A DNA stretch of 64,000 nucleotides from an uncultured Gammaproteobacteria bacterium (lineage in GTDB: Bacteria > Patescibacteriota > Microgenomatia > Levybacterales > GWA1-39-11): NCBI GenBank assembly GCA_964531275.1, contig CAZHDZ010000002.1:122180-186179 (forward strand), written 5' to 3'. A program made the translations under genes and the position numbers. The notes below the pieces were generated by a model that was not told the origin of the DNA, did not search any database, and was given only the letters and a program-made list of their open reading frames with translations. Shown one piece after another: positions 34,017 to 62,114 of the stretch (position 1 is the stretch's first letter; each line of letters starts with the position of its first letter).

Positions 34017-35504
34017 ATGAGTTCAATCGAATTAAAGAAAAATTCAAATCGTTTAGAGAAAAATAAAAGTTTTGTGTATAAGGGAGTGAGCTACATGCAT
34101 TATGCTGATATAGCTTTCCATCAAAGTGCATACTATCTCTTTACAAGAAAGCAAAAGATTCTCATTGTTGCTCTTCTACTAACCATAGCGGGTGCATTTC
34201 TTTTCAACTGGCATGCAACATTAATTTTCGCAGTTATATTTGTCACAGCGATATACTTCATTGATTTTTTCTTTAACTTTTTTCTCATCTTTAGAAGTTT
34301 TACAAATAAGCAAGAGCTTTCATTTACGAAAGACGAAGTACTTGCCTATAACAAAAGTTGGCCTACTTACACAATCCTTTGCCCTTTATACAAAGAATGG
34401 GCAGTAATTCCACAATTTGTTAAGGCAATGAAAAATCTTGATTATCCCAAAGAAAAGTTACAAATACTTTTCTTGCTCGAAGAGGATGATGTGCAATCGC
34501 AACAAGTTGTTAAGGAGTTTAATCTTCCTTCATTTTTCGAAACCGTGATTGTTCCACACTCTCTCCCAAAAACAAAACCAAAGGCAATGAATTTTGCATT
34601 GTCTAAAATTAAAGGAGAGTATTGTGTAATTTACGACGCAGAAGATGTGCCAGATACTTTGCAATTAAAGAAAGCGATTCTAGGATTTGATTTATCTGGT
34701 GAAAAAGTAGCATGCATACAAGCAAAACTAAATTTTTATAATCCGAGTCAAAATCTTTTAACAAAGGCTTTCACTGCTGAATATTCATTATGGTTTGAGC
34801 TTATTCTTCCGGGGCTACAGACGCTTAATGCTCCTATACCTCTTGGTGGTACGTCTAATCATTTTCGAACTGAAGGTATTAAGATGCTTGGTGGGTGGGA
34901 TCCATTTAACGTTACAGAAGACGCTGATCTGGGCATTAGACTTTTTAAAAAGGGTTACAAAACTGCAATTCTAGATTCAGTTACTCTTGAAGAGGCAAAT
35001 AGTGATTTTCTTAACTGGTATAACCAAAGAACTCGGTGGATAAAAGGATATATACAGACATACGTTGTTCACATGCGTCATCCCACTACATTTGATAAAA
35101 AGTTTTTGAATTCACATGTATTCTTGTTTCAGTTGATTATAGGGTCCAAAGTTTTCTCTCTTTTAGTAAACCCGTTCATGTGGATGTTAACTCTTGCTTA
35201 TTTTGTGTTCCAATTTCAGTTTGGTGCTTTTGTTGAATCGCTCTACCCGCCAATAGTTTTGTACTTTGCAGTAGCTACCTTAATATTTGGTAATTTTTTG
35301 CAGATTGTATATTACATGATCGGTTGCTACAGAAAAAAAGAATTTGCACTTTGCAAATATGCATTAATAATCCCACTCTATTGGATTGGAATGAGCGTTG
35401 CAGCATGGAAAGCATTATATGAAACGTTCTATAAGCCTTATTACTGGTCAAAAACAAAACATGGTTTACATCTACAAAAGCCTGTAGTTTCTACAAATAG
35501 TTAA
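34017..35504 (+). CDS. family 2 glycosyltransferase, processive beta-glycan synthase-like (BcsA/NodC-like), paralog 1 (single-domain)
   Basis: D...DAED (VIYDAEDVP), TED (VTEDADLGIR) and QxxRW (QRTRWIKGY) motifs, with 2 N-terminal and about 4 C-terminal TM helices. Confidence 0.8.
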   Translation: MSSIELKKNSNRLEKNKSFVYKGVSYMHYADIAFHQSAYYLFTRKQKILIVALLLTIAGAFLFNWHATLIFAVIFVTAIYFIDFFFNFFLIFRSFTNKQELSFTKDEVLAYNKSWPTYTILCPLYKEWAVIPQFVKAMKNLDYPKEKLQILFLLEEDDVQSQQVVKEFNLPSFFETVIVPHSLPKTKPKAMNFALSKIKGEYCVIYDAEDVPDTLQLKKAILGFDLSGEKVACIQAKLNFYNPSQNLLTKAFTAEYSLWFELILPGLQTLNAPIPLGGTSNHFRTEGIKMLGGWDPFNVTEDADLGIRLFKKGYKTAILDSVTLEEANSDFLNWYNQRTRWIKGYIQTYVVHMRHPTTFDKKFLNSHVFLFQLIIGSKVFSLLVNPFMWMLTLAYFVFQFQFGAFVESLYPPIVLYFAVATLIFGNFLQIVYYMIGCYRKKEFALCKYALIIPLYWIGMSVAAWKALYETFYKPYYWSKTKHGLHLQKPVVSTNS

Positions 35505-36932
35505 ATGGGATTCATAAAGAAAAACTTACTTGATATTTTATGTTGGCTGCTTTTAGTGGCCGGGGTTTTTGCTGTTTATGTAGTAGCTATTGAAAAAAAC
35601 TTTACATCATCCGTAGAAAGAGGAAGATACGCCCTAACAAGAGCAATTGTTGAAGATAAGTCTTTTAAAATAGATAGCTATAAAGAGTTTTCGTACCCTG
35701 ACGTTAGTTTTAAAAATGGCCATTACTATAGTCGATTTCCTGCAGGCATGTCTTTCCTGATGGCACCTGCACACATGATAGCTTTAAGGATATCTCCACA
35801 AAATCCACAAATTGTTGGTTTTGAATTCGTATCACTACTCTCTGCACTTTCAGTAGGATTTTTATATATCTTAGGACGAATTAATAAATTCAGCATTTCA
35901 ACTTCATTGCTTGGAGGCTACGTATTTGCGTTTGCGACTATTCTATTTTCATTTTCTGGGGGTTACTGGGCACATATTCCTTCAATTTTTGTTGTCTCAT
36001 CTGTTCTTGTTATCTTTTCTCTTTTCCTAAAAAGTCCAAAGTACCGGCATATATTTCTAATTGCGTTACTCTATTCCATTGGATTCAGCATAGATTTTCC
36101 GAATGCACTTTTCCTTTTCCCGATTATTTTGTTTATTCTTATTGCAGGTTACAAGAAGGGGAAACTTACTTTTCTGAAATATTTTGGTCTCATTATTACT
36201 CCTATTATTCTTATTATTTCGCTAATTCTCTTGTATAACACCTTAAGCTTCGGTAAACCCCTAGCAATTGGACAGTCTGCTTCAGTATCAGTTGGGACGA
36301 GATTTAAAACAAGCTTTATTCCATTAAAAGACTGGACTTCAGAAGGAGTATTTGATGACAGAAGGCTTTTTCCAGGCCTATACACTCAATTAATTAGTTC
36401 TCAACGAGGTCTTCTCATGTTTTCCCCTATCGTTTTCTTGGCTTGCATTGGCTTTATAAGTCTTTTTAAGAAAGACAAAATTTTCAGCACGGTAACTGCG
36501 AGCATTTTCTTGATTAATGTTATTTTTTATTCTGTATGGCAAGACTATTGGGGTGGCTGGAGTTATGGACCAAGATATCTGCTGGCAGTTCTTCCCATAT
36601 TTCTTTTGCCGACTCTTTTCTTTATTAAAGAAAAGCTGAAGAATATTTTGTTTCTAGTTTTATTTATTTTAGCCTCATTCTGGGGAATTTTAATTAACAC
36701 ATTGGGTGCTCTTACGGGCATACTTTTACCGTGCCCCTGCGAAGGATATTATGGACTTAAATATTCTCCACTCCAAGCTTTTAATCACCTTTATACCGCA
36801 AGCGATATTAACTCATTTTTTTACGATTCCTTCCTCCGTTCATTATTATCCCCACAATATATGTTCTTGCTTCTATTTTCTGTAATCATGTTGTTTTTTA
36901 TAGTTCTTGTATTAGTACATGAGAAAAAATAG
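35505..36932 (+). CDS. GT-C family (ArnT/PMT-like) membrane glycosyltransferase, paralog of 53999..55540
   Basis: About 12 TM helices. The first loop ERGRYALTRAIVED resembles the DEGRYAEISREM loop of ArnT/PMT_2. Confidence 0.5.
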   Translation: MGFIKKNLLDILCWLLLVAGVFAVYVVAIEKNFTSSVERGRYALTRAIVEDKSFKIDSYKEFSYPDVSFKNGHYYSRFPAGMSFLMAPAHMIALRISPQNPQIVGFEFVSLLSALSVGFLYILGRINKFSISTSLLGGYVFAFATILFSFSGGYWAHIPSIFVVSSVLVIFSLFLKSPKYRHIFLIALLYSIGFSIDFPNALFLFPIILFILIAGYKKGKLTFLKYFGLIITPIILIISLILLYNTLSFGKPLAIGQSASVSVGTRFKTSFIPLKDWTSEGVFDDRRLFPGLYTQLISSQRGLLMFSPIVFLACIGFISLFKKDKIFSTVTASIFLINVIFYSVWQDYWGGWSYGPRYLLAVLPIFLLPTLFFIKEKLKNILFLVLFILASFWGILINTLGALTGILLPCPCEGYYGLKYSPLQAFNHLYTASDINSFFYDSFLRSLLSPQYMFLLLFSVIMLFFIVLVLVHEKK

Positions 36933-39525
36933 TACACATTTTTATTTTTGGATAACTGCTGCAGTAGCATCAATATTGAGCATTGCCAGTTACATCTATT
37001 ATCTAAATCAAGGCGTTACAGTCGCTTACAACGATGCCAGAGCGCATTTAGATATGGCAAGACTGGTCGTTGATAATCTAAAACCCGGTATCGCACAAAT
37101 GGGAAGCGTTTGGTTACCACTTAATCACGTGCTTATGCTTCCGCTTATATGGAATTACACGCTGTGGCAATCTGGATTTGCAGGAAGTTTGGTGTCAATG
37201 ATCACGTTTATTGGAAGCGCACTTTTCATCTTTTTACTTGTTAATGAACTGACGAAAAAAGCACACGTAGCCTTTCTAGGTAGTCTTGTATTCATTTTAA
37301 ATCCAAACGTGTTATATATGCAGACAACACCCATGACAGAACTTACGCTTTTATTCTTCTTTACAGGCACAAGCTACTTTCTCTGTAAGTGGGTAAAAGA
37401 AAATTTCAACATTATCTATTTAATATTATCTGCTTTCATGGTATTTGGTGCCACCCTCACGCGGTATGATGGATGGTTCCTATTTATCTGCCTCATACCC
37501 TTAATAGCCGTTATGTCATTTGTTTCTGTTATTTCAAAAAGAACTGATATAAAACGAGCAGTTCTTGTTCAGTTAGCAAGAATTATTGAAGGAAGAATTG
37601 TAATTTTTTCGACAATTGGAGGCTATGGAATCCTATTATGGCTATTATGGAACCAAATTATTTACGGACAAGCCCTCTATTTCATGATCGGTCCATATTC
37701 AGCATATGCGCAGCAAACAAAGATTAAAGAGGCTGGGTCCTTATTAACCTACCACAACCTTCCACTCTCCATACAGTCTTATTGGTGGGCGATGGTTGAC
37801 AATACAGGCTCGCTATTGTTATTGCTAGGCGTAATTGGCTTCTTATACTTCCTTATTAAGCAAAAAATTAACCCAATTGCTTTAGCGCTATACACACTAC
37901 TTACCCCGTTGGTTTTCCATATACTTTCACTGTATGCAGGGAATTCAATATTAGTTGTGCCCGAGCTTGGTTCATCAGCTACACAAGAAGCTCATACCTC
38001 ATGGTTTAATGTAAGATATGGGTTAATGATGGTTCCCGCTGTTGCTATTTTTAGCGCATATCTTGCAAGTAAAGCCCGACTTATTGCAGTAATATTATTA
38101 ATTTCGATAATTGCTCAAGCAGGTTTGTTGTATATTAGAAATGATGTTATTACACTAACTGATGGTGTGATCGGGACTAGTTCACTGGACGTTGGAGATG
38201 CAAGCACCTGGATGAGGAGTGAGGTTGCTTCTGGAAATGGCCACATTTTAACCTCTATTGCCTACAATAATGCTTTAGCTTTTAGCACTGGTATTCCCCT
38301 AAAGAGGTTTATTCATGAAGGCACGGGAAATTACTGGTCAGACTCATTAACAGCACCCTCCAAGCATGCTACGTGGATAGTTATGGCAAATGGAGATGTA
38401 GGAGATGCAATATATACATCTTTAGTAACAAAGAAGAATCCTGATTTTAAGAATAACTTTACTCTGGTTATGAAAGGGAAGCATACGAATATTTATCAAA
38501 GAAACGAAACCTTAACGGATAAAAAAAATGCTGTTTTGGGTGTAAATATGGAAAATCTCAACATTCATGGCATGAATTCATATGATCTTGTATACAGAAC
38601 ACATAGGGAAATAGATGAAACCCTCAGTACTGCCGCTTCTCATAATATAAATACAATCCGTTTTTGGGGTTTTGGCGAAGGCTTTAAAGACTCATTCCAA
38701 CCAAATCTCGGAGAATTTAACTATAAAATGTTTGATAATTTGGCATACGCTGTTCATGAAGCTGAAAAAAAGAACCTAAAAGTAATTATCACATTCTCGA
38801 ATTATTGGAAGGATTATGGTGGAATAATTCAGTACTTAAAGTGGCACAACCTACCTAGTGCAACTACTACTCAAAAAGATGAATTTTTTCAAAATGAAAA
38901 AATAATTGTAAGCTTTGAAAAGTATATAAATGAGCTCTTGAGCTATAAGAGTTTGTACACAGGCAAACCCTTAAAGGAAGAGAAAGCTATTCTCGGATGG
39001 GAGCTAATGAATGAAGCGAGAAGTTCCACGGTTAAACGACAGGATATAATATTAAAATGGATGGATCGAACTTCTACTTATGTTAAGAGGCTAGATCCTA
39101 CTCGTCCAATTTTCGCAGGAGTAGAAGGTTTTACAGCTCAGTATCAACCTGATGGACATGGGCCGTTATTAGAAGATGTAGCGAAGCTTAAAAATATCGA
39201 TATCTTAACTGGTCACTACTACATAAGGGAAAATGATAAGTCTTCAATCGCTGAAGTGTTTTCGTATTGGCAAAAGATACAAAAAAGCAGCGGAAAACCT
39301 CTTCTTGTTGAAGAGGCTGGATTTGTAAAGAATAAAAAAGGGAATGAAAATAAAAACAGAATAGACCTATATAAAGACATATATAAAGAGGCTGATTCAA
39401 GAGGGCTTAACGGAGTGCTTCTTTGGAATTGGGCTCTAGCGATAGACAGTAGTTTTGGAATTTCCCCAAAAGATAAAAATGATAGTGCTATTTTAAATTT
39501 AATAAAAACGCAGGGAGCTAAGTAG
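36919..39525 (+). CDS. fusion protein: N-terminal GT-C-like multi-TM domain (paralog of 45212.. and 52378..) plus C-terminal GH5-type glycoside hydrolase domain
   Basis: The N-terminal roughly 500 aa are multi-TM with YNDARAHLDMARLVVDNLKPGIAQMGSVWLPLNHVLMLP. The C-terminal roughly 330 aa carry NTIRFWGF, a TIM-barrel strand LKVIITFSNYW, and a GWELMNEAR (NEP-like) catalytic acid/base motif of GH5. Confidence 0.55.
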   Translation: MRKNSTHFYFWITAAVASILSIASYIYYLNQGVTVAYNDARAHLDMARLVVDNLKPGIAQMGSVWLPLNHVLMLPLIWNYTLWQSGFAGSLVSMITFIGSALFIFLLVNELTKKAHVAFLGSLVFILNPNVLYMQTTPMTELTLLFFFTGTSYFLCKWVKENFNIIYLILSAFMVFGATLTRYDGWFLFICLIPLIAVMSFVSVISKRTDIKRAVLVQLARIIEGRIVIFSTIGGYGILLWLLWNQIIYGQALYFMIGPYSAYAQQTKIKEAGSLLTYHNLPLSIQSYWWAMVDNTGSLLLLLGVIGFLYFLIKQKINPIALALYTLLTPLVFHILSLYAGNSILVVPELGSSATQEAHTSWFNVRYGLMMVPAVAIFSAYLASKARLIAVILLISIIAQAGLLYIRNDVITLTDGVIGTSSLDVGDASTWMRSEVASGNGHILTSIAYNNALAFSTGIPLKRFIHEGTGNYWSDSLTAPSKHATWIVMANGDVGDAIYTSLVTKKNPDFKNNFTLVMKGKHTNIYQRNETLTDKKNAVLGVNMENLNIHGMNSYDLVYRTHREIDETLSTAASHNINTIRFWGFGEGFKDSFQPNLGEFNYKMFDNLAYAVHEAEKKNLKVIITFSNYWKDYGGIIQYLKWHNLPSATTTQKDEFFQNEKIIVSFEKYINELLSYKSLYTGKPLKEEKAILGWELMNEARSSTVKRQDIILKWMDRTSTYVKRLDPTRPIFAGVEGFTAQYQPDGHGPLLEDVAKLKNIDILTGHYYIRENDKSSIAEVFSYWQKIQKSSGKPLLVEEAGFVKNKKGNENKNRIDLYKDIYKEADSRGLNGVLLWNWALAIDSSFGISPKDKNDSAILNLIKTQGAK

Positions 39526-39542: not shown

Positions 39543-40091
39543 TTAGGCTTCGGGTGTTGCGATTTGAGTTGCCGTGATCACAAATTCTAGACCACTTTTG
39601 AGATTGTTGAAATGAGGTTCGTAAGGAAAATACAGTTGTCTTTCTTCTTCAACCCCAAGCTCCCAGCGACTGACATCCCAGGCTAGTCTATCTCCATTTT
39701 CCGAATATTGCCCTAATCCCTGATAGGTAGGTACACCCCCTACTGAAAGGCTAATTCTTGCAAGATCAATCTCTGGATCTATTTCATCAAACGCAAAAGA
39801 CATTGATACAGGTCCCTCGGAAAGGACTCGTGTTTTGTCCGGTTGCATTTCGTATACTACTTTTGTCGGACCCAGAGGCATATCTCCCTCGATAGTTTTG
39901 CTTGATGTTGCGGCTAGACTAAAGTTCCAACGACCTTTGCCAAGACCTTCTACGTCTAGGTCTACTGTTCCTAATTCGATATCTTCAAAGTCTCTTTCTC
40001 CATCTATATTTGGCTCAAAGTCTTCAGGTATTCTAAATTTCTCACCAAGTTTTACGTTAAGTTGTGGTCTAGGATTCTCTTCTGAGGTCAT
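39543..40091 (-). CDS. hypothetical protein (acidic, no TM helices)
   Basis: 182-aa ORF with no recognisable motif and slightly elevated GC. Confidence 0.35.
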   Translation of the reverse strand: MTSEENPRPQLNVKLGEKFRIPEDFEPNIDGERDFEDIELGTVDLDVEGLGKGRWNFSLAATSSKTIEGDMPLGPTKVVYEMQPDKTRVLSEGPVSMSFAFDEIDPEIDLARISLSVGGVPTYQGLGQYSENGDRLAWDVSRWELGVEEERQLYFPYEPHFNNLKSGLEFVITATQIATPEA

Positions 40092-40132: not shown

Positions 40133-40951
40133 TTATAGTGACCAGATCTTGAAGTTCTTAAATTCTACGTCCATAAAATCTGTTCTTATTCCTGCGTAAT
40201 TATCTTCACTTATAGGTCTTGAGCCATATCTAGATCCCTCGTCTGTTGCTGTAAGATACGTGGTCCATGAGCCTCTATTCTGCAAATCTCCTTCAAGCGT
40301 TATGTTAACCTTTCCATTGTCATTTCTGACAACGGTCTTAATACCTATCCACGAGTTGAGGGGAATGAGATTTGGATTTGAATTTCTATTATATGTTCCA
40401 TTGAGCACTTTCTTGTAGGCCAATGTATAGTATGACCCATTTAATTTCTTTTTAATTACCATAGCACCATCAACTCTTAATCCTGCGTAGTACAGAGTTT
40501 GGCCATCCATTGCGTATCTGCTCATGAGTAAAATTCCATTCCCTTCACTTCTATTACTACTAGAAAGCGCGTTGTAACGATTTATTTTGAAATAATTTGT
40601 TTGAGCAAAATTGCCCCATCGTGGTCTTGTGATAAGCCTTAGAAGATTTTGTGGTTGTCTTCCTCCGTTAGTATCAGTACTGCTACTTTTTGCGTACATT
40701 TGGAAAATAGGACTGGAAGAAGGAAGATCTCCCTGGAGTGATTTACCAATTCCGTCTGTGACTGTGATTGTTCCACCAGAATTAACCCACAAATTTGGGT
40801 TATTGCTCGTATCCATGCTGCCGGCGCCGAGAATTGTCATATTCTGGCCTGGGGTAAATGAATAAAGAATAGCTGCGTAAGCTTGAGTGGCTCCAACTAA
40901 ACTTAAGAGAAAAAGGGCAAGCAGTATAACTTTCATTTGATGCTGCTTCAT
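40133..40951 (-). CDS. secreted protein with a LamG/concanavalin-like jelly-roll domain
   Basis: Signal peptide MKVILLALFLLSLVGATQAYA. The beta-rich body contains a YAGLRVDG block similar to the C-terminal domain of the adjacent deacetylase. Confidence 0.4.
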   Translation of the reverse strand: MKQHQMKVILLALFLLSLVGATQAYAAILYSFTPGQNMTILGAGSMDTSNNPNLWVNSGGTITVTDGIGKSLQGDLPSSSPIFQMYAKSSSTDTNGGRQPQNLLRLITRPRWGNFAQTNYFKINRYNALSSSNRSEGNGILLMSRYAMDGQTLYYAGLRVDGAMVIKKKLNGSYYTLAYKKVLNGTYNRNSNPNLIPLNSWIGIKTVVRNDNGKVNITLEGDLQNRGSWTTYLTATDEGSRYGSRPISEDNYAGIRTDFMDVEFKNFKIWSL

Positions 40952-49763: not shown

Positions 49764-50363
49764 TTAATTTGAACGAGTTTTTAATCGAAGAATGAGTCCT
49801 GTTATCGTAAGCAATACACCAACTGTGAAGATTTCAGCTATGAAAAGCATGTTTCCTGTTGAAGCCAAATTGGTTCCTTGAGCAGACTGAACAATAGAGC
49901 CTTTGCCGTCACTTCTTCCATCAGTTCTACCATCGGTTCTACCATCAGTTCTTCCATCTCCTCCGCTCGTACTAGATGCAGAGCATGTATAATTCTTATT
50001 TTGAGCTAGATACGGGACATCCGAAAGTCCCCATGCCTCTCCGCTAGGAACAAATATCCACCCCTGACTTTGATATACCTTAATTTCATCTTCAGTTAGA
50101 TTTCCGATTTTCATCCAGTTTGTTTGGATACCAGCACCATCACTTCCACAAAAACATTGCATTGCATTTTCGCCTTCAGCATATACAACATCTTTTCCTA
50201 TTTTTGATCCAATACCAACTATGCCATGGGTGCCATCCTGATAATTTGCAATAACTGTTCCAGTTGGAACAAGACAAGAAGTGAAAGAATCTTGTGCAAA
50301 AGCAGGTTTTGTCAACGCAAGAACACAGGCTGCTAAAAATGATAAGAGAAGCAATTTATTCAT
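49764..50363 (-). CDS. sortase substrate: secreted protein with DGRT repeats and a C-terminal LASTG sorting signal
   Basis: Signal peptide MNKLLLLSFLAACVLALTKPAFA, then GDGRTDGRTDGRTDGRSDG repeats, then LASTGN plus the hydrophobic MLFIAEIFTVGVLLTITGLIL and a basic RLKTRSN tail (cell-wall sorting signal). Confidence 0.7.
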   Translation of the reverse strand: MNKLLLLSFLAACVLALTKPAFAQDSFTSCLVPTGTVIANYQDGTHGIVGIGSKIGKDVVYAEGENAMQCFCGSDGAGIQTNWMKIGNLTEDEIKVYQSQGWIFVPSGEAWGLSDVPYLAQNKNYTCSASSTSGGDGRTDGRTDGRTDGRSDGKGSIVQSAQGTNLASTGNMLFIAEIFTVGVLLTITGLILRLKTRSN

Positions 50364-50431
50364 ATCGAAGCAGTAGTATAGTATATTACTCTGGGCTTGT
50401 CAACAAGTATATTGCTAGCCTAATTTCTCAA

Positions 50432-52376: not shown

Positions 52377-52377
52377 A

Positions 52378-55541: not shown

Positions 55542-56579
55542 TTATTTTTTTAAAGAAACCAGCTTTCTGTAATTGCTATAAAACAGCCTATTGCTAACTA
55601 ATTTTTTTCTCAATTTGGATAGATTGACAAGCAAAATTCTTGCAGCAAGATTATTGGTGTAGTAAATATCATATTGCATTTTTGAGATGCTAGTAAAGCT
55701 TCTTTTTAACATGTCGTCTCCTCTACTAAAATCGAAAAGTTCCATTCCTTCTTTGTGCAGACCCTCAAATAACGAATATGCAAGAATTTTCCCTGGTGTT
55801 AGGAAAGCATAAGAATTGTTAAAAGATTTATTTATACCATGGTATATTTTTCCCGATCTTACTCCTATTTCGTATGCAATTGGCTTTTTTTTGTAATAAA
55901 GAACATTCATCCCAATATTGTCTCTCCCATTTTTTACTAAGCTGGCAAAAAACGCCCTATTCAGCGGATTATTAAATGTTCCTATGTTCTTTTTTTGTCT
56001 ATAGCTAATTCTGTCTATCTTCATGGCAATTTTTAGAGACTGAACGCTACCTCTATTCATCTCGAATGAAATATCACGTCCGTATTCTTCATAAACTTTC
56101 TTAATTTTTCTCATGTTCTTACTTTTAACAAATCTGAAAGGATTATTTTCAAAGGGCAGTTGGAGATTTACGCCAGTCTCGAGTTTTTCAATGCCTCGCT
56201 GTGAAAATAAACTAGCTAGATCTTCTGGGACCTCAGTCAGAACAAAAGAGCCTTTAGCCTTCAGGGCATTAAAAAGTGTATTAATAGTCGCCGTCTCATA
56301 TTTATCGATAAGAAGTGCACTTCTATCAACAAAAAGCCCACCAGGGTTTGTATAGAAAGAAATACCAAACTTCTTTACCAAAACAAGAGGCAATAAGGCT
56401 TTTAGCTTGTTTTTATGTCGTATGCAGATTATTACGGGTTTTAAATCAGGATATACTTCACTACATATCTGAAACCACACATATGAATTGAAGAAATGAG
56501 CACATACTGAGCTATCCCACAGGGATTTCCATTCTTCTATTAAGCTTTCGTTTATAAATTCAATATATTCGATTTTCAT
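55542..56579 (-). CDS. FemAB/CelD-like GNAT-fold acyltransferase (Acetyltransf_6-like)
   Basis: 345-aa soluble protein with a N...W...F...Y...W N-terminal pattern and a C-terminal GNAT-like core. Weak assignment. Confidence 0.35.
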   Translation of the reverse strand: MKIEYIEFINESLIEEWKSLWDSSVCAHFFNSYVWFQICSEVYPDLKPVIICIRHKNKLKALLPLVLVKKFGISFYTNPGGLFVDRSALLIDKYETATINTLFNALKAKGSFVLTEVPEDLASLFSQRGIEKLETGVNLQLPFENNPFRFVKSKNMRKIKKVYEEYGRDISFEMNRGSVQSLKIAMKIDRISYRQKKNIGTFNNPLNRAFFASLVKNGRDNIGMNVLYYKKKPIAYEIGVRSGKIYHGINKSFNNSYAFLTPGKILAYSLFEGLHKEGMELFDFSRGDDMLKRSFTSISKMQYDIYYTNNLAARILLVNLSKLRKKLVSNRLFYSNYRKLVSLKK

Positions 56580-57331
56580 TATAGATTTGTAAAAAACACT
56601 TCATTCTTCTTCGGCATTTTTCCGGAAGGAAAGAGCAGATCAAATTGCGTTTTGTAGAGCTTTACAAGCTTTTCTTTTGCATCCCAATCTGTCTTGAATA
56701 CATATCTCTTGCCTTTTGCTGCGCGTTCAATATCAATCATGTTGTAGGGAAAATCTGACCAATAGATGACGTTATGAAAATCCTCAGAGGACTTAAATGT
56801 AAGAGTATGATCGACATGCCCACCTACAGCCAAAGGAGCAAATACATATGCATTCTTTTCAATGAAAGAGAGTTTATTTTTTATCAGGTCAACAGTTTTT
56901 ACATCTTGTTTTGCTATCTTTTTACCGATAATGTTCAATCTATATATCGGGTACATAACTGAAAATTCTGTTAGAAAAGTACTTAAGAATTTTTCTAGAA
57001 AATTTTGAGAGTACTTCTTTCTCCATAATGCCTCTGAAAATCCCAAATTCACTACATTTACTCCCATTCTTTTCATGACAATACTGTCTTCTACTACTCT
57101 TTCTTTGTAATACGAGTTTGCTGAGCTAAAACCCGCTCTTTGAGTAGATTTCTGGGCTGACAATGTACTCTTTCTCCCTGCTTTTGTAAAGATATTTATA
57201 ACCGTTACATTTGTTCTTTTTGTAAGTCTACTCATGAGTCCACCAGCTGAAAGCACCGCGTCATCTAAGTGTGGTGACAAAAAATAACAGTTAATCTTTT
57301 CTTTTTCAATTTTTTTAATAAGATTTTCCAT
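56579..57331 (-). CDS. PIG-L / LmbE family N-acetylglucosaminyl deacetylase
   Basis: YFLSPHLDDAVLSAGGLM matches the PIG-L motif SPHPDDExLGxGG; there is a downstream HxDH-type region (GGHVDH). Confidence 0.7.
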   Translation of the reverse strand: MENLIKKIEKEKINCYFLSPHLDDAVLSAGGLMSRLTKRTNVTVINIFTKAGRKSTLSAQKSTQRAGFSSANSYYKERVVEDSIVMKRMGVNVVNLGFSEALWRKKYSQNFLEKFLSTFLTEFSVMYPIYRLNIIGKKIAKQDVKTVDLIKNKLSFIEKNAYVFAPLAVGGHVDHTLTFKSSEDFHNVIYWSDFPYNMIDIERAAKGKRYVFKTDWDAKEKLVKLYKTQFDLLFPSGKMPKKNEVFFTNL

Positions 57332-57332: not shown

Positions 57333-58406
57333 TTAGATTGATACTGCTTTAATGTATTCCCTACCTACGTATTCCCAATTAAATTTGTTAGCGTATTTTT
57401 TCCCTTTTTTAGCAATAGCGTCATGTGTTTTATGGTTTTTAGCTACTTCTCCTATTGCATGCGAAAGTTTTTCCGTGTCAAAAGGTCTGATTTTTATGCT
57501 TAATCCATTTGGTATCCATTTAAGACCAGGAATGTTAAATGAAATTAATGGAACTCCGGCACTTAAACTTTCTAGACAAACCATAGAAAATGTTTCGAAC
57601 CTTGAAGGAACTACAACGCAAATAGCACTAGATAATAATTTTTGTTTTTGAATTGAATTAACTTTACCTTTTAAGATCACTTTCGAATCAAGTTTAAGAC
57701 GTGTAATGTACTTCTTTAAGATGGTTAATTGCTTTGCTTCTCCACTCCCGGCCAAAACAAGTTTTTGTGGGATATTTGCTTTTTTATACGATTCCAGCAG
57801 AAGGTCCAACCCTTTCTGATTAACCTCTAACCTTCCAATAAAGAGTATGTATCTCTTGGGAGAAGCGAACGTCTGGATTTTCTCTATGCCGTTTGGGATA
57901 ACGACTATGCTTGCTTTTTTATTTTGTAGCTTAACTTCGTTTTTTATTTGGTTTTGGGTAACTATGAACTTATTGTATTTTTTCAGGCCAAAATTCTCTA
58001 CTAAATCAAAAGGCAGCTTATACTTTCTTTTCATGTCGGAAGCACTAAGCATATGAACAAGTCCAATAACTGGTTTTTTGGTAAACAAAGGCAAAAATGA
58101 AGTTGAGAATGGAGGAGTAAAGTTCTCTACCCATACATCAAAATTATTCTTTCTGACGATACTCGGCAATAATAGTTGGTACACGATTTGTCCTAGCTTA
58201 GGGCCTCCAAAAGCAATACCAATCCTTCTATACGCAACACCTTCAACTTTTTCGTTTTTTGCCCCAAAATACCTGCCTGTTATTACTTCTACATCAAATT
58301 TTCGGGAAAGTTCTTTAGCACTTTTGTGAACAGCATAAGCACCACCACCGGCATAATGCGGGTTTTTTATATCGTCATAAGTAGAAATTATTATTTTTTT
58401 TGTCAT
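57333..58406 (-). CDS. family 4 glycosyltransferase (GT-B)
   Basis: FIGRLEVNQKGLDLL...LVLAGSG...VVPSRFETFSMVCLESLSAGVPLISFNIPG (EX7E motif). Confidence 0.75.
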   Translation of the reverse strand: MTKKIIISTYDDIKNPHYAGGGAYAVHKSAKELSRKFDVEVITGRYFGAKNEKVEGVAYRRIGIAFGGPKLGQIVYQLLLPSIVRKNNFDVWVENFTPPFSTSFLPLFTKKPVIGLVHMLSASDMKRKYKLPFDLVENFGLKKYNKFIVTQNQIKNEVKLQNKKASIVVIPNGIEKIQTFASPKRYILFIGRLEVNQKGLDLLLESYKKANIPQKLVLAGSGEAKQLTILKKYITRLKLDSKVILKGKVNSIQKQKLLSSAICVVVPSRFETFSMVCLESLSAGVPLISFNIPGLKWIPNGLSIKIRPFDTEKLSHAIGEVAKNHKTHDAIAKKGKKYANKFNWEYVGREYIKAVSI

Positions 58407-58407
58407 G

Positions 58408-59667
58408 TTAAAAAAAGAGTGATGAAATTCTATTAGCTATATAGCCTGCTTTTTTAAGAGAAAACATAGGAGTTCTTTTTTCGTGCTCTTGAAATAGAAT
58501 GTGCCCAAATGAACGTGAGCTTTCTTCCCAACTGAATTGTTTTGCCCACTTATATGCTTCTTTTGAAGCCAAGTCTCGAAGCCTCTGATTAACTATTAAT
58601 TTTTTAATGCTTCTTGAAAAAGCCTTGGTATCTTTAAGCTTGACTAATATTCCAGTTTTGCCATCAACTATTGAATCTCTCAAGCCTTTAGTGTCTGAAG
58701 CAATCACCGGAGTTCTGCAAGAATTTGCCTCAATTACTGTGATCCCCCATCCTTCCACGGTTGATGGCTGAACAGCAAACCAACTCTGAGAAAGAAGTCG
58801 TATTTTTTCTTCTTCACTTACCTTCCCCAAAAACAAAATTTTATCTTCTAACCCTAGCTTTACAACTAAATCCCTGAGACTTCCCAAAGTATCTCCTTCT
58901 CCGACAATATAGAATCGAGCATTGGCAAATCTTTTGGCCACTGTTGCAAATGCACGAATTGCAACATCAACATTTTTGTAAGCCTTTAGCCTGCCAAGAT
59001 AAATCATCGAAGGAAAATCAGTTTTTTTGAATTTCTTGGTCGGCATTTCTATTCCTGGATTGACAATCTGAACTCTTTCCTCAGATGCGATTCCTGCTTT
59101 TACTATTTCACGTCGTGAGGATTCTGATACGGTTATTACTTGGTGATTCTTATAGACAAGAGGCATAACCTTGCCTTCAATAAAACGTCCTATATGTGAC
59201 ATTGGAAATTTCATTTGCTCAATGAAAATCTCCTGATGCACATGATGAACTAATAATATTACGGGCTTTCTTGTAAAAAGAGGAGTAAAAAATGGAATAC
59301 CATTTTCTGAGTCAATTATTACATCGTATTTATTTCTAAACTTAAAAATTGTATAAAGTATTGCCCAAAGATATACCGTAAAGAATCCACCGCGTCTTAT
59401 TATGTTAACCATTCCTATAGTCTCGTTTCGACTACTTTGACCGTCATTTCCACAGAATAGTGTTACTGAATTTCCTTCTTGGGCCCATCTTTTAGATAAC
59501 TCTTGAATATAGACCTCTGCTCCACCTGACCATGCGTGCTTAGTATCTCTCCAATTAAAGACTAGGACTCTAAGACCCTTGCCTTTTACTTTTTTACCCG
59601 GTATGAATAGCCCACCCAAGTCTCTAAGGTTTGAAAGGACAATTAATGATTTATCTAAGATACTCAT
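58408..59667 (-). CDS. family 4 glycosyltransferase (GT-B)
   Basis: YLGRLKAYKNVDVAIRAF...YIVGEG...VQPSTVEGWGITVIEANSCRTPVIASDTKGL. Confidence 0.75.
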   Translation of the reverse strand: MSILDKSLIVLSNLRDLGGLFIPGKKVKGKGLRVLVFNWRDTKHAWSGGAEVYIQELSKRWAQEGNSVTLFCGNDGQSSRNETIGMVNIIRRGGFFTVYLWAILYTIFKFRNKYDVIIDSENGIPFFTPLFTRKPVILLVHHVHQEIFIEQMKFPMSHIGRFIEGKVMPLVYKNHQVITVSESSRREIVKAGIASEERVQIVNPGIEMPTKKFKKTDFPSMIYLGRLKAYKNVDVAIRAFATVAKRFANARFYIVGEGDTLGSLRDLVVKLGLEDKILFLGKVSEEEKIRLLSQSWFAVQPSTVEGWGITVIEANSCRTPVIASDTKGLRDSIVDGKTGILVKLKDTKAFSRSIKKLIVNQRLRDLASKEAYKWAKQFSWEESSRSFGHILFQEHEKRTPMFSLKKAGYIANRISSLFF

Positions 59668-59669
59668 AA

Positions 59670-62114
59670 TTAAAATATTGATGACGCGTACTTCAAAGGC
59701 GTGACAATTGCTTTTTTGAAAGCAAGAACACCGAAGCTGATAATCTTTCTCTCAGCAATACCAATAACAATAAGAGTTCCAGCAAATAGTGCTAAAGTTT
59801 TTCTCTCAAAAGACCCAAGGAGGACGATGGGCCCAAGAATTCCACGAGTTACAGAAACTTTGGGGAACTTAAAGTCTGGCTTAGGAAGTCGAAGTCCAGG
59901 TTGAGGCACAACGACCGGAACAACTTCAGCTGCTCTTTCCTGTTCTTGTTTTTTCTTAAGAAGATGAAGACCGTGAACAGTTTTCTCCCAATAGAATGGT
60001 TTGAAAATCAATTGGTATAAAGCCATGAATCCAGCAACAGAAATCATGAGCCAATAAAAGGGTATTAAGAACGTGTATTTTATAAGTGGGTAATGCTCTC
60101 TTTTCATTACTCCAATCATGTAGTAGTACATAAATAGGAAATTTCCGAATATGAGAGAGAAGGCTGCCATGTAAAAAACAATGGCAGGGTAAAGTTTTTC
60201 TATTGTGGGTCCAACGTAAATATAAAGCGTAAAGTATGCAATTGTTGCAAGCCAAAGCAAGGGGTTAATCAGAATAAACGCAATCTTACCCCCAATGATC
60301 AGGTGAAATATAGGAAAATGATGTCCGCGTGTTTTTGCAAAGGCAAGACTATTTCTCGTATGCACAAGATACGTCTGCATGTAGCCTTTAATCCAACGTG
60401 ATCTTTGCCTTATCCAATTTCCCCACTTACTGTTAGCCTCCTCAAGGGTCAGAGAATCAATAATCGCCGTCTTATAACCACCTTTAAATAAACGCATACC
60501 TAAATCGGCATCTTCAGTTACGTTGAACGGATCCCACCCTTGCAACATATGCAGATCCTCAGTTCTAAAGTGATTTGAGGTCCCTCCTAGTGGAATGCTT
60601 GTATTAATTGATTGAAGTCCCGTTAGTGTAATGTCAAACCATAGCGAATACTCAGCTGTAAAGAACCTTGTAAGTAGGTTTTGTGAGGGGTTGTAGTAAT
60701 TTAGTTTTGCCTGCAAGCAAACGACATCTCGCCCGGCTTTTTGAAATGCTGCATAAGCTTTTTTCAACTGCATTGGTTCTGGCTTATCCTCGGCATCAAA
60801 AATGACTAGGTATTCACCCCTAGCAAAAGAGAGCCCATAATTACATGCCTTTGGCTTAGTCTTTGGTTGAGAATTAGGAACAACTACAACCCGTACATAT
60901 GATGGTAGCTTCATCTGCCTTGCAGCAAGTATTGATTCTTTATCGTCTTCTTCAAGAAGCAGCATGACGTCCAATTTCCTTTTTGGCCATGATAACTGAG
61001 ATATATTCTCTACAAATTGGGGAATAATATGAGCTTCTTTGTAAAGAGGGCACAAAATTGTATATATGGGTAGATGCTTGTCTTGCAATACTGAAAGCTC
61101 TCTTGGTGTGAAAGAAATTTCCTGAGGAAAATGGAGACTTTTAAGTACTACAAATAGATTAAATACTGTGTCAGAGAAGTAAATAAAGCTTAATATGGCA
61201 ACAATAAACGAAAGAGTTGCAACCGGACTCAAAACCACTCCCATAATAGCAAGCTCAATAAGAAGTGCTATCGTAAATTTTTGACCTGAAGTAAATGTAA
61301 TGATAGATGATTTGCTGTGATGCAGTGTCGTGTGAGTAACGTATTTTTTTCTCTTATATCGGATTCCTGCACCACGCATTGTATTTGTCTTTTCAGAAGG
61401 AACGATACGAGGAGATAACTTGGCCAATTTGAGATTTAGCGCAGAAGAACCAATCTCATATACAGTTCTAATTATTCCGATTTTAGATTCTCCCTTTTTT
61501 CTCTTTGAAAAAGTTATGTCGTGATTTGTAATCGAGAACCCCGCTTCGCGTGCACTATGCAAAAAAGCTAGATCAAAAGTCCAAGCAGAAGATGGCTTGA
61601 AATATATTGTAGATATTACTTCTTTTTTAAATACTTTAAGCCCTGATTGTATATCATGGTCAAGGCCAAACAAGAACTTTCCAAATCCAAATCTAAAACC
61701 ACGACTAAGAGTTCTTCGAAGAACATTGTCTTTGTACCTTCTTCTATTGGAACAAACAATATCTACATCCTTTAGCTTAAGAGCCATTTTTGCGATTTCT
61801 TCGGGAGGATATTGAAGATCAGCATCGATGAGGGCCAAATTAGAATATTTAGCTTCGGAAAAGCCCTCAAATAACGAATAAGCCTTTCCTTGCTTTCCCT
61901 TTTTGAGCAAATGCCTTACAGGATAATTTTCTGTAAGTTTTTTTACTATTCTTGCGGTTCCGTCTTTTGATCTATCATCTATTATTAGAATTTCAAATTT
62001 AAATTTACCCTTCTCTAAAGAAGCTGATAGTCTTTCTATTAATTCCCTAACAGAACCTTGCTCGTTGTAAGCCGGAACAATTATTGATATCTCTTTTTTA
62101 AATATGTTTTTCAT
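59670..62114 (-). CDS. bifunctional glycosyltransferase: N-terminal DPM1/ArnC-like GT2 domain, TM region, C-terminal processive BcsA/NodC-like GT2 domain (paralog 3)
   Basis: The N-terminus has ISIIVPAYNEQGSVRELIERL...ILIIDDRSKDGT...LIDADLQYPPEEI. The C-terminal half has YTILCPLYKEAHIIPQF, VIFDAEDKPEPMQL, TEDADLGMR and QRSRWIKGY. Confidence 0.8.
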   Translation of the reverse strand: MKNIFKKEISIIVPAYNEQGSVRELIERLSASLEKGKFKFEILIIDDRSKDGTARIVKKLTENYPVRHLLKKGKQGKAYSLFEGFSEAKYSNLALIDADLQYPPEEIAKMALKLKDVDIVCSNRRRYKDNVLRRTLSRGFRFGFGKFLFGLDHDIQSGLKVFKKEVISTIYFKPSSAWTFDLAFLHSAREAGFSITNHDITFSKRKKGESKIGIIRTVYEIGSSALNLKLAKLSPRIVPSEKTNTMRGAGIRYKRKKYVTHTTLHHSKSSIITFTSGQKFTIALLIELAIMGVVLSPVATLSFIVAILSFIYFSDTVFNLFVVLKSLHFPQEISFTPRELSVLQDKHLPIYTILCPLYKEAHIIPQFVENISQLSWPKRKLDVMLLLEEDDKESILAARQMKLPSYVRVVVVPNSQPKTKPKACNYGLSFARGEYLVIFDAEDKPEPMQLKKAYAAFQKAGRDVVCLQAKLNYYNPSQNLLTRFFTAEYSLWFDITLTGLQSINTSIPLGGTSNHFRTEDLHMLQGWDPFNVTEDADLGMRLFKGGYKTAIIDSLTLEEANSKWGNWIRQRSRWIKGYMQTYLVHTRNSLAFAKTRGHHFPIFHLIIGGKIAFILINPLLWLATIAYFTLYIYVGPTIEKLYPAIVFYMAAFSLIFGNFLFMYYYMIGVMKREHYPLIKYTFLIPFYWLMISVAGFMALYQLIFKPFYWEKTVHGLHLLKKKQEQERAAEVVPVVVPQPGLRLPKPDFKFPKVSVTRGILGPIVLLGSFERKTLALFAGTLIVIGIAERKIISFGVLAFKKAIVTPLKYASSIF

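Follow-up and report, generated by a model that had tools for sequence, protein, structure and literature searches.

A putative envelope-glycan assembly system encoded in three versions by a 28-kb region of a Patescibacteria genome

Gene content of the region

The window, a 64,000-nucleotide stretch of DNA from a member of the Patescibacteria (CPR), includes a region spanning ~28 kb that is organised into three operons: operon 1 (34017-39525, +), operon 2 (48864-39543, -) and operon 3 (62307-49219, -). Genes were assigned from Pfam and NCBIfam searches (Table 1). The common core is a membrane GT2 beside one or two GT-C-fold glycosyltransferases (families A and B), together with an extracytoplasmic hydrolase, which in operon 1 is a GH5 mannanase-type domain fused to B and in operon 3 an unclassified domain, X. 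The original prediction of a cell-envelope glycan and glycosylation cluster is supported: every ORF that it named lies where it was placed, and the gene list agrees with ORF coordinates, Pfam and NCBIfam after corrections for 36919, 51375, 59670 and 46744. The calls for the two GT4s, the PIG-L, FemAB-like and sortase genes, the PgaC-like GT2, the CE4 deacetylase and the UDP-sugar dehydrogenase were confirmed by Pfam and NCBIfam matches, and the WbbL-like gene is a GT2, with a weak rhamnosyltransferase similarity. Outside the 28-kb region, searches with the putatively GT-C (TMTC-like) gene at 21213 showed only TPR repeats and many TM helices.

Table 1. Features of the three operons, with positions in the window and principal family matches
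Operon	Feature	Coordinates	Strand	Matches
1	GT2a, single-domain BcsA-type membrane synthase	34017..35504	+	Glyco_trans_2_3 8e-24 (Pfam); CelA 3e-27 (NCBIfam); BcsA 7lby 8e-17 (PDB)
1	A1, GT-C-fold family A	35505..36932	+	NF047440 1e-12
1	B1, GT-C-fold family B, N-terminal part of 868-aa protein	36919..38508	+	510 bits, family B profile
1	GH5 endo-beta-1,4-mannanase-like domain fused to B1	38509..39525	+	3pz9 6e-34 (PDB)
2	182-aa acidic protein, last gene (membership by position only)	39543..40091	-	
2	Secreted 272-aa protein, unknown family	40133..40951	-	
2	CE4 polysaccharide deacetylase, PgaB-like, uncharacterised C-terminal domain	40948..42540	-	Polysacc_deac_1 2e-16; PgaB 1.8e-32
2	Second synthase-type GT2, NodC/PgaC/chitin-synthase-like	42525..43859	-	NodC 2e-36; PgaC 2e-33; Chitin_synth_2 2e-16
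2	Nucleotide-sugar 6-dehydrogenase (UDP-ManNAc/UDP-GlcNAc dehydrogenase-like)	43859..45142	-	TIGR03026 1.5e-124; closest equivalogs UDP-ManNAc dehydrogenase 5.5e-97, TviB 5.5e-74
2	B2, GT-C-fold family B	45212..46747	-	PMT_2 27.3 bits (cutoff 26.1)
2	GT2b, BcsA-type synthase + degenerate N-terminal GT2-like domain	46744..48864	-	
3	Dedicated sortase	49219..49752	-	PF04203 3.5e-23
3	LAxTG sortase substrate	49764..50363	-	
3	Soluble-type GT2, WbbL/rhamnosyltransferase-like (weak)	50432..51439	-	Glycos_transf_2 1.4e-16; TIGR01556 8e-12 (below cutoff)
3	X, membrane-anchored extracytoplasmic domain	51375..52394	-	
3	B3, GT-C family B	52378..54006	-	560 bits, family B profile
3	A2, GT-C family A	53999..55540	-	NF047440 4e-10
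3	GNAT Acetyltransf_6 (FemAB-like/CelD-like), acyl- or aminoacyl-transferase	55542..56579	-	PF13480 4e-17
3	PIG-L family de-N-acetylase	56579..57331	-	PF02585 7e-10
3	GT4b	57333..58406	-	Glycos_transf_1 3.5e-24
3	GT4a, MshA/BshA/PglJ-like	58408..59667	-	Glycos_transf_1 1e-41; MshA 3e-30
3	GT2c, bifunctional: N-terminal ArnC/DPMS/GtrB-like domain + C-terminal BcsA-type synthase	59670..62114	-	N-domain: ArnC 2e-19, P. furiosus DPMS 6e-19, GtrB 1e-11 (PDB)
Upstream of 3	HTH_17 small DNA-binding protein	62116..62307	-	PF12728 5e-12

Synthases, GT-C enzymes and hydrolases

All three GT2s carry the full signature of a processive synthase, as had been predicted, with the DAED, TED and QRxRW (QRTRW) motifs invariant across 30 members of the family, and GT2a has TM helices on both sides of its catalytic domain. 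Their proposed paralogy is borne out by identities of 57, 53 and 44% (E 0 to 4e-176, all-vs-all BLASTP) and by the common block YTILCPLYKE..IPQF...LLLEEDD. GT2c contains two separate GT2 stretches, the first of which has canonical NE / DD.S / DADLQYPP motifs and, besides the PDB relatives in Table 1, matches AglJ and dolichyl-phosphate hexose transferases; at the level of sequence, this shows a polyprenyl-phosphate-sugar synthase domain of the ArnC/DPMS/GtrB type. In GT2b, Pfam matches are confined to residues 327-620, and the N-domain, which scores merely 0.033, has lost the NE, DDxS and DxDLQY motifs. Since GT2a is without any ArnC-like domain and GT2b without an active one, operons 1 and 2 would need a borrowed lipid-linked donor.

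One member of each GT-C family was modelled with AlphaFold2, A1 for family A (pLDDT 90.5) and B2 for family B (pLDDT 93.2), the other three proteins being their paralogs. Foldseek searches with these models returned GT-C enzymes exclusively at E<=1e-3, the best matches being ALG9, PglB, STT3, AglB, Pmt4 and ArnT for A1, and DPY19, STT3, ALG12, AglB, ArnT, AftB and Pmt4 for B2. The predicted structures thus show a GT-C fold for both families, and the assignment on which the original prediction had staked itself survived. An aspartate located after TM1 is invariant in each family (D66 in A, D38 in B). The predicted paralog sets, three B and two A, also stand: in BLASTP the B set (36919 residues 16-530, 45212 and 52378) has 33-40% identity (E 1e-92 to 1e-120; 35-40% for B1 and 33-40% for B3 against the other two) and shares the loop Y(N/G)DA(R/E)xH...WLPL(P/N)H, and the A pair has 27% identity (E 1.6e-45) and shares ERGR(Y/F)AL...ED. 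The GT-C density, described as unusual, is typical within the lineage, in which A+B pairs occur in many CPR loci and some loci have four GT-C genes in 10 kb.

The prediction of GH5-like hydrolases holds for the C-terminus of 36919, in which the catalytic N168-E169, E269, H236 and W306 are conserved and the best 17 of 18 PDB matches are mannanases or mannosidases, and fails for X (51375), which was rejected as GH5, the family being undetectable in searches and profile comparison with the GH5 domain giving 3% probability. For operon 1, the GH5 type points to a backbone resembling beta-1,4-mannan (Man or ManNAc). X has 457 homologues and belongs to an unclassified family, putatively of clan GH-A-like glycoside hydrolases: PF11790 Glyco_hydro_cc was matched by 9 of 45 members, with weak GH128-like signals, and the X profile gave weak PDB matches alone, to GH10, GH53 and GH5, around GEFG. 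A hydrolase function is less well supported for X than for the GH5 domain.

The accessory genes of operon 2, in which a NodC/PgaC-like synthase is joined by a UDP-HexNAc dehydrogenase and a CE4 deacetylase, suggest a HexNAc polymer that is partly deacetylated and/or uronic. The secreted 272-aa protein had no match in Pfam, NCBIfam or PDB, and a homologue is encoded after NodC-CE4 in L032 and beside CE4 in L111; the 182-aa protein had none in Pfam or NCBIfam. In operon 3, the cytoplasmic GT4a and GT4b (a pair with 26% identity, E 2e-22, BLASTP), PIG-L and the GNAT protein, for which NCBIfam and PDB searches returned no relatives, probably make a primer, anchor or side unit that contains GlcN and is N-acylated. 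The HTH_17 protein, whose gene ends 1 nt before that of GT2c, is a possible regulator of this operon.

Conservation and age of the three modules

Of 44 CPR-like loci, 42 have a GT-C gene no more than 10 kb from the GT2, as do 12 of 13 non-CPR loci. Fusions link the same components: B to GH5 (P0143, P0145, L044, L072 and L082), ArnC-like GT2 to B and GH5 (L066), X to B (P0314 and others) or to A (P0333), and CE4 to A. GT4a is fused to the GT2 C-terminus in many CPR genomes, giving proteins of 1100-1600 aa, and GT2::GT2::GT4(::GT4) arrangements also occur; L034 has GT4b fused to PIG-L, and L044 and L092 have PIG-L, which keeps its place in the gene order of at least 12 loci, fused to the Fem-like gene. 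Five loci of Ktedonobacteria type have GT2::GT-C fusions; one of them is from cultured Thermogemmatispora aurantia, in which Pfam places GT2 and PMT_2 in one 1130-aa ORF. This gene order and the multiple independent domain fusions show that the parts belong together. On balance, it seems somewhat probable that each operon encodes its own version of a hybrid system for envelope-glycan assembly, which is conserved across Patescibacteria and which Chloroflexota, Firmicutes, Actinomycetota and Dormibacterota have in a reduced form. Its coupling of a cellulose-synthase-like enzyme with membrane glycosyltransferases of the lipid-carrier type and an enzyme that cuts the polymer is seemingly undescribed, no description of such a system having been found in the searchable literature.

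Three similar gene copies inside 28 kb could also be read, without any conserved system, as the segmental duplication originally predicted, if recent and local, or as unrelated exopolysaccharide genes brought together by chance. This is extremely improbable: nucleotide identity between copies is only ~67% and restricted to the GT2 cores, each copy has closer relatives in other CPR classes than among its sisters, and the order of module 3 is repeated gene for gene in L035 and dozens of metagenome loci, which together refute it. The three module versions are ancient and each conserved on its own, rather than local copies.

The sortase substrate has a signal peptide and then a ~100-aa four-Cys domain, for which Pfam and PDB searches returned no relatives; a low-complexity linker leads on to LASTG, which is followed by a TM helix and the basic tail RLKTR. 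C29, C69, C71, C126, QTNW and WGL are invariant in the family alignment, and the LAxTG-type motif (LA-x-[T/S]-G) was present in 74 of 74 copies with a detected motif. A search anchored on the substrate protein alone recovered 50 independent metagenome loci, with the sortase gene directly downstream in 44, glycan-module genes nearby in 43 and X immediately upstream in 32. The hunch that the substrate belongs to the system is therefore strongly supported, and the sortase and LAxTG protein form a conserved part of module 3, in which the four-Cys protein may either be glycosylated by the system or tether its product to the wall.

Proposed assembly and alternative explanations

The explanation that we favour, with modest confidence, combines BcsA-type polymerisation, an ArnC-like donor, GT-C decoration and hydrolase trimming. 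The BcsA-type GT2 would polymerise a beta-linked backbone from nucleotide sugar and thread it through the membrane, while the ArnC-like domain would place a sugar on polyprenyl phosphate. This lipid-linked sugar would be flipped, a step with no assigned protein in the region, and moved by the GT-C enzymes onto the emerging polymer at the outer face, and the hydrolase would trim or release chains, as BcsZ and PssZ do in other synthase systems. We infer the sugar and linkage of the polymer, and the GT-C acceptor, from family resemblance; the product may be a wall polymer, a lipoglycan or a protein-linked glycan.

The ArnC/AglJ-like domain could instead make a polyprenyl-phosphate-sugar primer, which the synthase and the operon 3 GT4s elongate and which, after export, a GT-C enzyme ligates en bloc to peptidoglycan, lipid or protein, resembling WaaL after the synthase-dependent O-antigen route or AglB with dolichol-phosphate-linked glycans. 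An initiating-type GT2 fused before a synthase, with GT4s behind, is the usual pattern of consecutive enzymes, and the AglJ and dolichyl-phosphate hexose transferase matches of GT2c, the oligosaccharyltransferases among the top structural neighbours of both GT-C families and the absence of a separate flippase gene, GtrA-type included, from the 34-62 kb region are all consistent with this route. We nevertheless consider it unlikely, because a ligase needs no two different GT-C enzymes per module and a lipid primer is not known to be required by BcsA-type synthases. The parallel system of Paenibacillus also speaks against it: a synthase carrying a c-di-GMP-binding MshEN domain is followed there by a GT2+GtrA/DPMS_TM gene and a PMT_2 GT-C, and the polyprenyl-phosphate-sugar synthase has a DPMS/GtrA-type gene of its own, as is typical when the donor is a monosaccharide.

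A protein acceptor is equally compatible with the fold data, because DPY19, STT3, PglB and Pmt4 are among the best structural neighbours. The GT-C enzymes, with folds resembling protein glycosyltransferases, might then act as PMT/OST/DPY19-like enzymes on the LAxTG protein, and perhaps on the Thr/Pro-rich TasA-like protein 33310, with the GT2s only supplying lipid-linked donors and the sortase then attaching the glycosylated protein to the wall. GspA of Actinomyces oris is anchored in this way and sets a precedent for sortase substrates that are glycosylated (PMC6381275). In favour of this reading, tight co-conservation links the substrate and sortase genes to A-B-X, Ser/Thr-rich linkers are found in many substrates and 33 of 47 have an N-x-S/T sequon immediately ahead of the last conserved Cys, but neither linker composition nor sequon is universally conserved. 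A dedicated protein-glycosylation system is quite improbable, since the GT2 keeps every processive-synthase residue, GT-C enzymes carry fused polysaccharide hydrolase domains, and the GT2/GT-C pair occurs without a nearby sortase or substrate in modules 1 and 2 and in all examined Saccharimonadales, Chloroflexota and Firmicutes loci.

Organisation and enzyme content of the cluster

The glycan cluster comprises three operons, in which genes tightly abut or overlap one another. An open reading frame was present at every gene coordinate of the original prediction, the sequence blocks it quoted were found in the window proteins, and its CE4 and PIG-L deacetylases, sugar dehydrogenase, PgaC-like GT2, sortase and sortase substrate were borne out by Pfam, NCBIfam and sequence. 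The FemAB-like label of 55542 survived in part: the protein belongs to the broad GNAT family PF13480 (4e-17), but FemABX similarity was not found, FemA/FemX-level matches being absent from NCBIfam and PDB sequence searches. A 63-aa HTH_17 (excisionase/MerR-like) DNA-binding protein is encoded 1 nt ahead of the first operon 3 gene after it. In operon 2, the 40133 gene encodes a secreted 272-aa protein of an unclassified family, with no match in a PDB sequence search, whose homologues adjoin the NodC-like GT2 and CE4 genes in two other loci (L032, 19136; L111, 3801), and it probably belongs to this sub-module.

Features of the window, with genes named by start coordinate and operon contents in order
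Feature	Position	Strand	Content or assignment	Basis
Operon 1	34017-39525	+	GT2a, A1, B1::GH5	
Operon 2	48864-39543	-	GT2b, B2, sugar dehydrogenase, NodC-like GT2, CE4, two unknown proteins	
Operon 3	62307-49219	-	HTH_17, GT2c, GT4a, GT4b, PIG-L, GNAT, A2, B3, X, GT2w, LAxTG protein, sortase	
GT2a	34017	+	GT2 synthase	BLASTP, alignment
A1	35505	+	GT-C family A	AlphaFold2, Foldseek
B1::GH5	36919	+	GT-C family B by paralogy; GH5 domain	BLASTP, PDB
Secreted protein	40133-40951	-	unclassified family	
CE4	40948	-	CE4 deacetylase, PgaB-like	Pfam/NCBIfam
NodC-like GT2	42525	-	NodC/PgaC/chitin-synthase-like GT2	Pfam/NCBIfam
Sugar dehydrogenase	43859	-	nucleotide-sugar dehydrogenase, nearest UDP-ManNAc/UDP-GlcNAc dehydrogenases	Pfam/NCBIfam
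B2	45212	-	GT-C family B	AlphaFold2, Foldseek
GT2b	46744	-	GT2 synthase	BLASTP, alignment
Sortase	49219	-	sortase	Pfam
LAxTG protein	49764-50363	-	sortase substrate	
GT2w	50432	-	small GT2	Pfam/NCBIfam
X	51375	-	putative hydrolase	
B3	52378	-	GT-C family B by paralogy	BLASTP
A2	53999	-	GT-C family A by paralogy	BLASTP
GNAT	55542	-	GNAT Acetyltransf_6	Pfam/NCBIfam
PIG-L	56579	-	PIG-L	Pfam/NCBIfam
GT2c	59670	-	GT2 synthase with ArnC-like domain	BLASTP, alignment
HTH_17	62116-62307	-	DNA-binding protein	

The GT2 synthases form a genuine paralog set, as had been proposed, with identities of 57, 53 and 44% in all-against-all BLASTP. All three contain DAED, TED and QRTRW, which do not vary among 30 aligned family members, resemble BcsA (PDB 7lby, 8e-17) and carry hydrophobic segments on both sides of the GT domain in a hydropathy scan; these segments may be TM helices that could form a translocation channel. 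A search for evidence of Bcs membership found no PilZ match and no BcsB-like gene, and the NCBIfam CelA model scored 95 bits on a window GT2 against an equivalog cutoff of 699. The name XagB, attached to some homologues, is merely a JGI label.

The synthase of operon 3 (59670) has an additional N-terminal GT2 domain with intact motifs, which is of the polyprenyl-phosphate-sugar synthase type because the solved structures closest to it are those of ArnC (2e-19), Pyrococcus DPMS (6e-19) and GtrB (1e-11). No separate TM anchor belongs to this ArnC-like domain, which continues into the processive-type synthase. Its counterpart in 46744 is degenerate, having lost all three signature motifs (Pfam E 0.033), and 34017 has none. 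A GtrA-type flippase gene was looked for among ORFs of 70-220 aa in the 34-62 kb region, none of which has three or more TM helices.

BLASTP also recovered the other two proposed paralog sets, with 33-40% identity among the family B proteins 36919 (residues 16-530), 45212 and 52378, and 27% identity (E 1.6e-45) between the family A proteins 35505 and 53999; the two GT4s share 26% by the same method. Each multi-TM family was then represented by one protein, for which homologues were collected and aligned and an AlphaFold2 model was compared with PDB by Foldseek at E<=1e-3. The 45212 model (pLDDT 93.2, pTM 0.92) returned 23 matches, all GT-C enzymes (DPY19 at the top, with STT3, ALG12, AglB, ArnT, AftB and Pmt4), and the 35505 model (pLDDT 90.5, pTM 0.91) returned 16, again all GT-C enzymes (ALG9, PglB, STT3, AglB, Pmt4, ALG3 and ArnT). 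In the alignments, D38 of family B is invariant within Y-G/N-D-A directly after TM1, and in family A D66, just after TM1, is invariant and D57 nearly so; the secondary-structure strings of the models would place these residues in the first extracytoplasmic loop. The GT-C assignment of the five multi-TM proteins, set beforehand as the refutation test of the original prediction, thus holds for families A and B, as both models match only GT-C enzymes and an invariant Asp follows TM1, with paralogy pointing to the same class for the 36919 N-terminal part, 52378 and 53999.

PDB sequence searches gave no match for 45212 or 35505, and Pfam PMT_2 (gathering threshold 26.1 bits) scored 27.3 bits on 45212, 16.6 on 35505 and had no match in 36919, 52378 or 53999; homologues carry the NCBI name 'glycosyltransferase family 39 protein'. 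Fusion or adjacency to ArnC/DPMS-like GT2 domains suggests that these GT-C enzymes may use a polyprenyl-phosphate-linked donor. The protein at 21213-22955, described as TMTC-like, has many TM helices and a C-terminal TPR region, and its membrane part had no GT-C match in Pfam, NCBIfam or the family A and B profiles.

GH5-like hydrolases had been predicted in the cluster, which is correct for the C-terminus of 36919; 51375 (X) is not detectably GH5. Residues 531-868 of 36919 (338 aa) are of the GH5 beta-mannanase type (best PDB match 3pz9, 6e-34), with mannan-active enzymes as the top 17 of 18 PDB matches and an intact clan GH-A catalytic set (N168-E169, H236, E269 and W306, all invariant); PF00150 matches the homologous protein P0143 (2.8e-12), not the window copy. 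A diverged GH5 domain in 51375 was rejected, since hhalign against the GH5 domain gave 3% probability, and the window copy had no Pfam or PDB sequence match. X defines a new family of ~457 proteins without previous annotation. PF11790 (Glyco_hydro_cc) matches 9 of 45 members (best 3e-5), and the X profile has weak PDB matches to GH10, GH53 and GH5 around a GEFG motif, consistent with a putative hydrolase.

Conservation, fusions and age of the modules

A protein search returned more than 8000 GT2 homologues at ~55% identity, mainly from Patescibacteria, and because this conservation across CPR classes is unusually high, the GT2 system probably serves a core envelope function. Named homologues, from Levyi-, Roizman- and Woesebacteria, suggest the affiliation of the window's own organism. 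Envelope chemistry has hardly been described for the Patescibacteria, an enormous radiation with few cultured members, and the system is a candidate factor in the host attachment of these episymbionts. A genome scan anchored on the GT2 yielded 80 loci (loci are given L-numbers throughout), which are spread over many CPR classes and also represent Chloroflexota, Paenibacillus, Sporolactobacillus, Actinomycetota, Dormibacterota and Omnitrophota. According to profile and BLAST maps, 42/44 CPR-like loci and 12/13 other loci with enough flank have a GT-C gene no more than 10 kb from the GT2.

Independent fusions also join the linked genes in many combinations. GT2::B fusions occur in five Ktedonobacteria-type loci, including that of the cultured Thermogemmatispora aurantia, in which Pfam detects GT2 and PMT_2 in a single 1130-aa ORF. 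An ArnC-like GT2::B::GH5 fusion is present in L066, B::GH5 fusions in two proteins (P0143, P0145) and three loci (L044, L072, L082), and a PMT_2::GH8 fusion in one Saccharimonadales locus. X is fused both to B (B::X) and to A (A::X), and others include GT4b::PIG-L, PIG-L::GNAT, CE4::A and GT2::GT2::GT4(::GT4) giants of 1100-1600 aa. These repeated fusions predict that the cellulose-synthase-type enzyme and the GT-C enzymes act as one machine.

In Paenibacillus foliorum (L077, 9071-14291), a synthase with the c-di-GMP receptor domain MshEN (3.9e-7) is followed by a GT2 with GtrA/DPMS_TM (GtrA domain PF04138) and then by a PMT_2 GT-C; this is a cultured, probably c-di-GMP-regulated version of the system. 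Cultured relatives are thus available in T. aurantia, with the minimal two-gene form (L070, 9071-9868 and 9905-13297), and in Paenibacillus, with the c-di-GMP-binding MshEN form. Cultivable Saccharibacteria have dGT2-B modules in their genomes (L001).

Segmental duplication, proposed as the origin of the paralogs, is rejected: self-BLASTN detected ~67% identity in the GT2 cores only, and the window GT2s are nearer to genes of other genomes than to each other, sister GT2s ranking 6th to 53rd of 82 in closeness in a C-domain alignment. Separate loci elsewhere reproduce the individual modules, with L035 matching module 3 gene for gene (63-89% identity), L012 matching module 1, and L014 and L022 matching the GT2-B2 pair of module 2. 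The cluster is therefore a union of three old module types. Many MAG records whose loci have the genes of CPR loci in the CPR arrangement (L007, L009, L012, L014, L019, L027 and others) bear the titles 'uncultured Gammaproteobacteria', 'Bdellovibrionales' or 'Pseudomonadales', names that look unreliable.

Sortase and LAxTG substrate

The last two genes of operon 3 encode a substrate protein with a signal peptide, LASTG motif, TM helix and basic tail (RLKTR), and a sortase (PF04203, 3.5e-23) with a TIYTCTG motif, whose best class C, D, E and F scores were 30-44 bits versus NCBIfam cutoffs of 140-166. A second, independent scan anchored on the substrate protein alone gave 80 metagenome loci, of which the 50 with at least 3 kb of flank were counted. 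The sortase lies directly downstream of the substrate in 44/50, glycan-module genes are present in 43/50, X is immediately upstream in 32/50, and a GT2 lies within 2 kb downstream in 9/50. All 74 copies with a detected sorting motif have one of the LAxTG type (LA-x-[T/S]-G), a kind of signal that class E sortases typically use. The mature protein consists of a ~100-aa domain with four invariant Cys and QTNW and WGL motifs, for which Pfam and a PDB search with the substrate profile returned no relative; together with its own sortase, it represents a newly defined family without previous annotation. Of the sigma-70-like sequences in the region, the one with the highest match (TTGACA-17-TATACT, 11/12 positions, 50375-50403, minus strand) falls in the 68-nt gap upstream of the substrate gene, so the pair may also be transcribed separately, the total of promoter-like sites in the region being not above chance.

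The GT-C enzymes might glycosylate the LAxTG protein itself, an explanation that appears quite improbable. An N-x-S/T sequon lies within six residues before the last invariant Cys in 33/47 substrates, compared with 0.7 per 100 aa elsewhere in the domain, and because only these 33 carry it, N-glycosylation is treated as a lead, not a conclusion. C-mannosylation, suggested by the DPY19 top match of family B, was rejected, as the substrates have adjacent WW/WM in GIQTNW(W/M)K and no W-x-x-W. The preferred reading is that the GT-C enzymes act on an exported polymer.

Proposed pathway and relation to known systems

Domain content, folds, conserved linkage and fusions are established, and a pathway can be proposed in which a beta-glycan would be made and exported by the BcsA-type GT2 while the ArnC-like domain would form a sugar-charged polyprenyl phosphate. 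With this as donor, the GT-C enzymes would then elaborate the polymer outside the membrane, and a hydrolase would trim or release it. In module 3, GT4, PIG-L and GNAT steps may build a GlcN-containing unit in the cytoplasm, with the LAxTG protein as possible carrier or wall tether of the product. The weak points of this pathway are that the cluster has no flippase gene, operons 1 and 2 contain no active donor synthase, and the assignment of X is weak. The synthase could otherwise be lipid-primed, with the GT-C enzyme acting as an en bloc ligase, which is considered unlikely.

The proposed export-and-elaboration pathway draws on parts of known classes, namely synthase-dependent exopolysaccharide production, Gtr/Arn-type extracytoplasmic glycosylation and sortase anchoring. 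Synthase-dependent systems include BcsA/BcsZ for cellulose, PgaC/PgaB for PNAG and Escherichia coli NfrB (PMC8669469). The window shares with them a membrane GT2 with D, DxD, TED and QxxRW and probable flanking TM helices, a cognate extracytoplasmic hydrolase (GH5, and putatively X) and, in operon 2, a PgaC/PgaB-like pair; the Paenibacillus relative shares the MshEN domain with NfrB. Unlike these systems, it has no BcsB, PilZ or outer-membrane parts, and its synthase is obligatorily teamed, sometimes fused, with a GT-C and a polyprenyl-phosphate-sugar synthase, both of which they lack.

Three-component extracytoplasmic glycosylation is represented by GtrA/GtrB/GtrC, ArnC/ArnT, CsbB/YfhO and GacI/GacL (summarised in PMC13390465). 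The pairing of an ArnC/GtrB/DPMS-like GT2 domain with a GT-C, directly fused in L066, is common to both, but the window cluster has no GtrA gene and its ArnC-like domain is joined to a processive-type synthase, whereas the acceptor polymer of the known systems comes from separate Wzy- or ABC-dependent pathways. The system thus falls outside Bcs (no PilZ/BcsB, sub-threshold scores) and outside the canonical Gtr triad (no GtrA).

The GPI-anchor and mycobacterial PIM/LM glycolipid pathways use a GT4 (PIG-A/MshA-like), PIG-L, a DPM1/Ppm1-like GT2 and GT-C enzymes, with a GPI transamidase in the former. Operon 3 resembles them at the level of enzyme class only, with GT4, PIG-L, an acyltransferase-type GNAT, a DPM1/Ppm1-like GT2, two GT-C enzymes and a protein-attaching transpeptidase in a compatible order; unlike in the GPI pathway, this transpeptidase is a sortase, and the operon adds a processive synthase domain and a putative hydrolase. 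PEP-CTERM/exosortase EPS loci likewise contain related enzymes, including a GT2 (XrtG-associated, TIGR03111, 3e-16) and GT4s (stp2 and XYAG1), with all scores far below family cutoffs, as well as a FemAB-like GNAT, a polysaccharide deacetylase and a sorting enzyme with a dedicated substrate. The window has a classical sortase and LAxTG instead of exosortase and PEP-CTERM, and GT-C enzymes are not known as components of PEP-CTERM/exosortase loci. Linkage of a sortase substrate to a glycan-attaching function is also seen in the glycoprotein anchoring of Actinomyces oris GspA/SrtA/LcpA (PMC6381275), but the window has no LCP enzyme, the linked enzymes are GT-C, GT2 and GH, and the substrate domain is unrelated to known families.

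Wzx/Wzy, ABC transporter and synthase schemes do not cover this combination, and the searchable literature on CPR/Patescibacteria yielded no description of obligatory synthase/GT-C/hydrolase coupling with a sortase and substrate dedicated to it. It is conceivable, if doubtful, that the GT2/GT-C/hydrolase trio is a distinct undescribed route, in which the synthase backbone is obligatorily coupled to a lipid-carrier GT-C step (one polypeptide in Ktedonobacteria) and which supplies Patescibacteria and several Terrabacteria with their main secondary wall polymer or lipoglycan, and in which the Microgenomates-type sortase joins the four-Cys LAxTG protein to the glycan or to a PIG-L/GNAT-generated amine. 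If true, the joined protein would parallel, in bacteria, the surface proteins that are anchored through glycolipids or glycans.

Other genes of the window were also classified. Operon 1 is directly preceded by genes (32141-33786) for a TasA/camelysin-like protein (32141), a signal peptidase of the SipW type (32751; NF046067, 4.6e-26) and a Thr/Pro-rich TasA-like protein (33310). Homologues of SipW and TasA also occur beside the GT2 (L010) and beside the substrate-sortase pair (L136, L147), and SipW occurs with no TasA nearby in L122, L143, L152 and L163. A lipid-related-looking run at 8248-14359 contains an NAD-dependent epimerase/reductase, DUF3419, a UbiA prenyltransferase (10251, 4e-11), a PEP-utilising-enzyme domain protein, a GNAT and a 207-aa four-TM protein without family match, and these genes may have a part in the metabolism of lipids or of the polyprenyl carrier. 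The Obg GTPase (25312-26277) is only 321 aa long, with Pfam covering the GTP1_OBG and GTPase domains alone, which is compatible with a reduced CPR genome.
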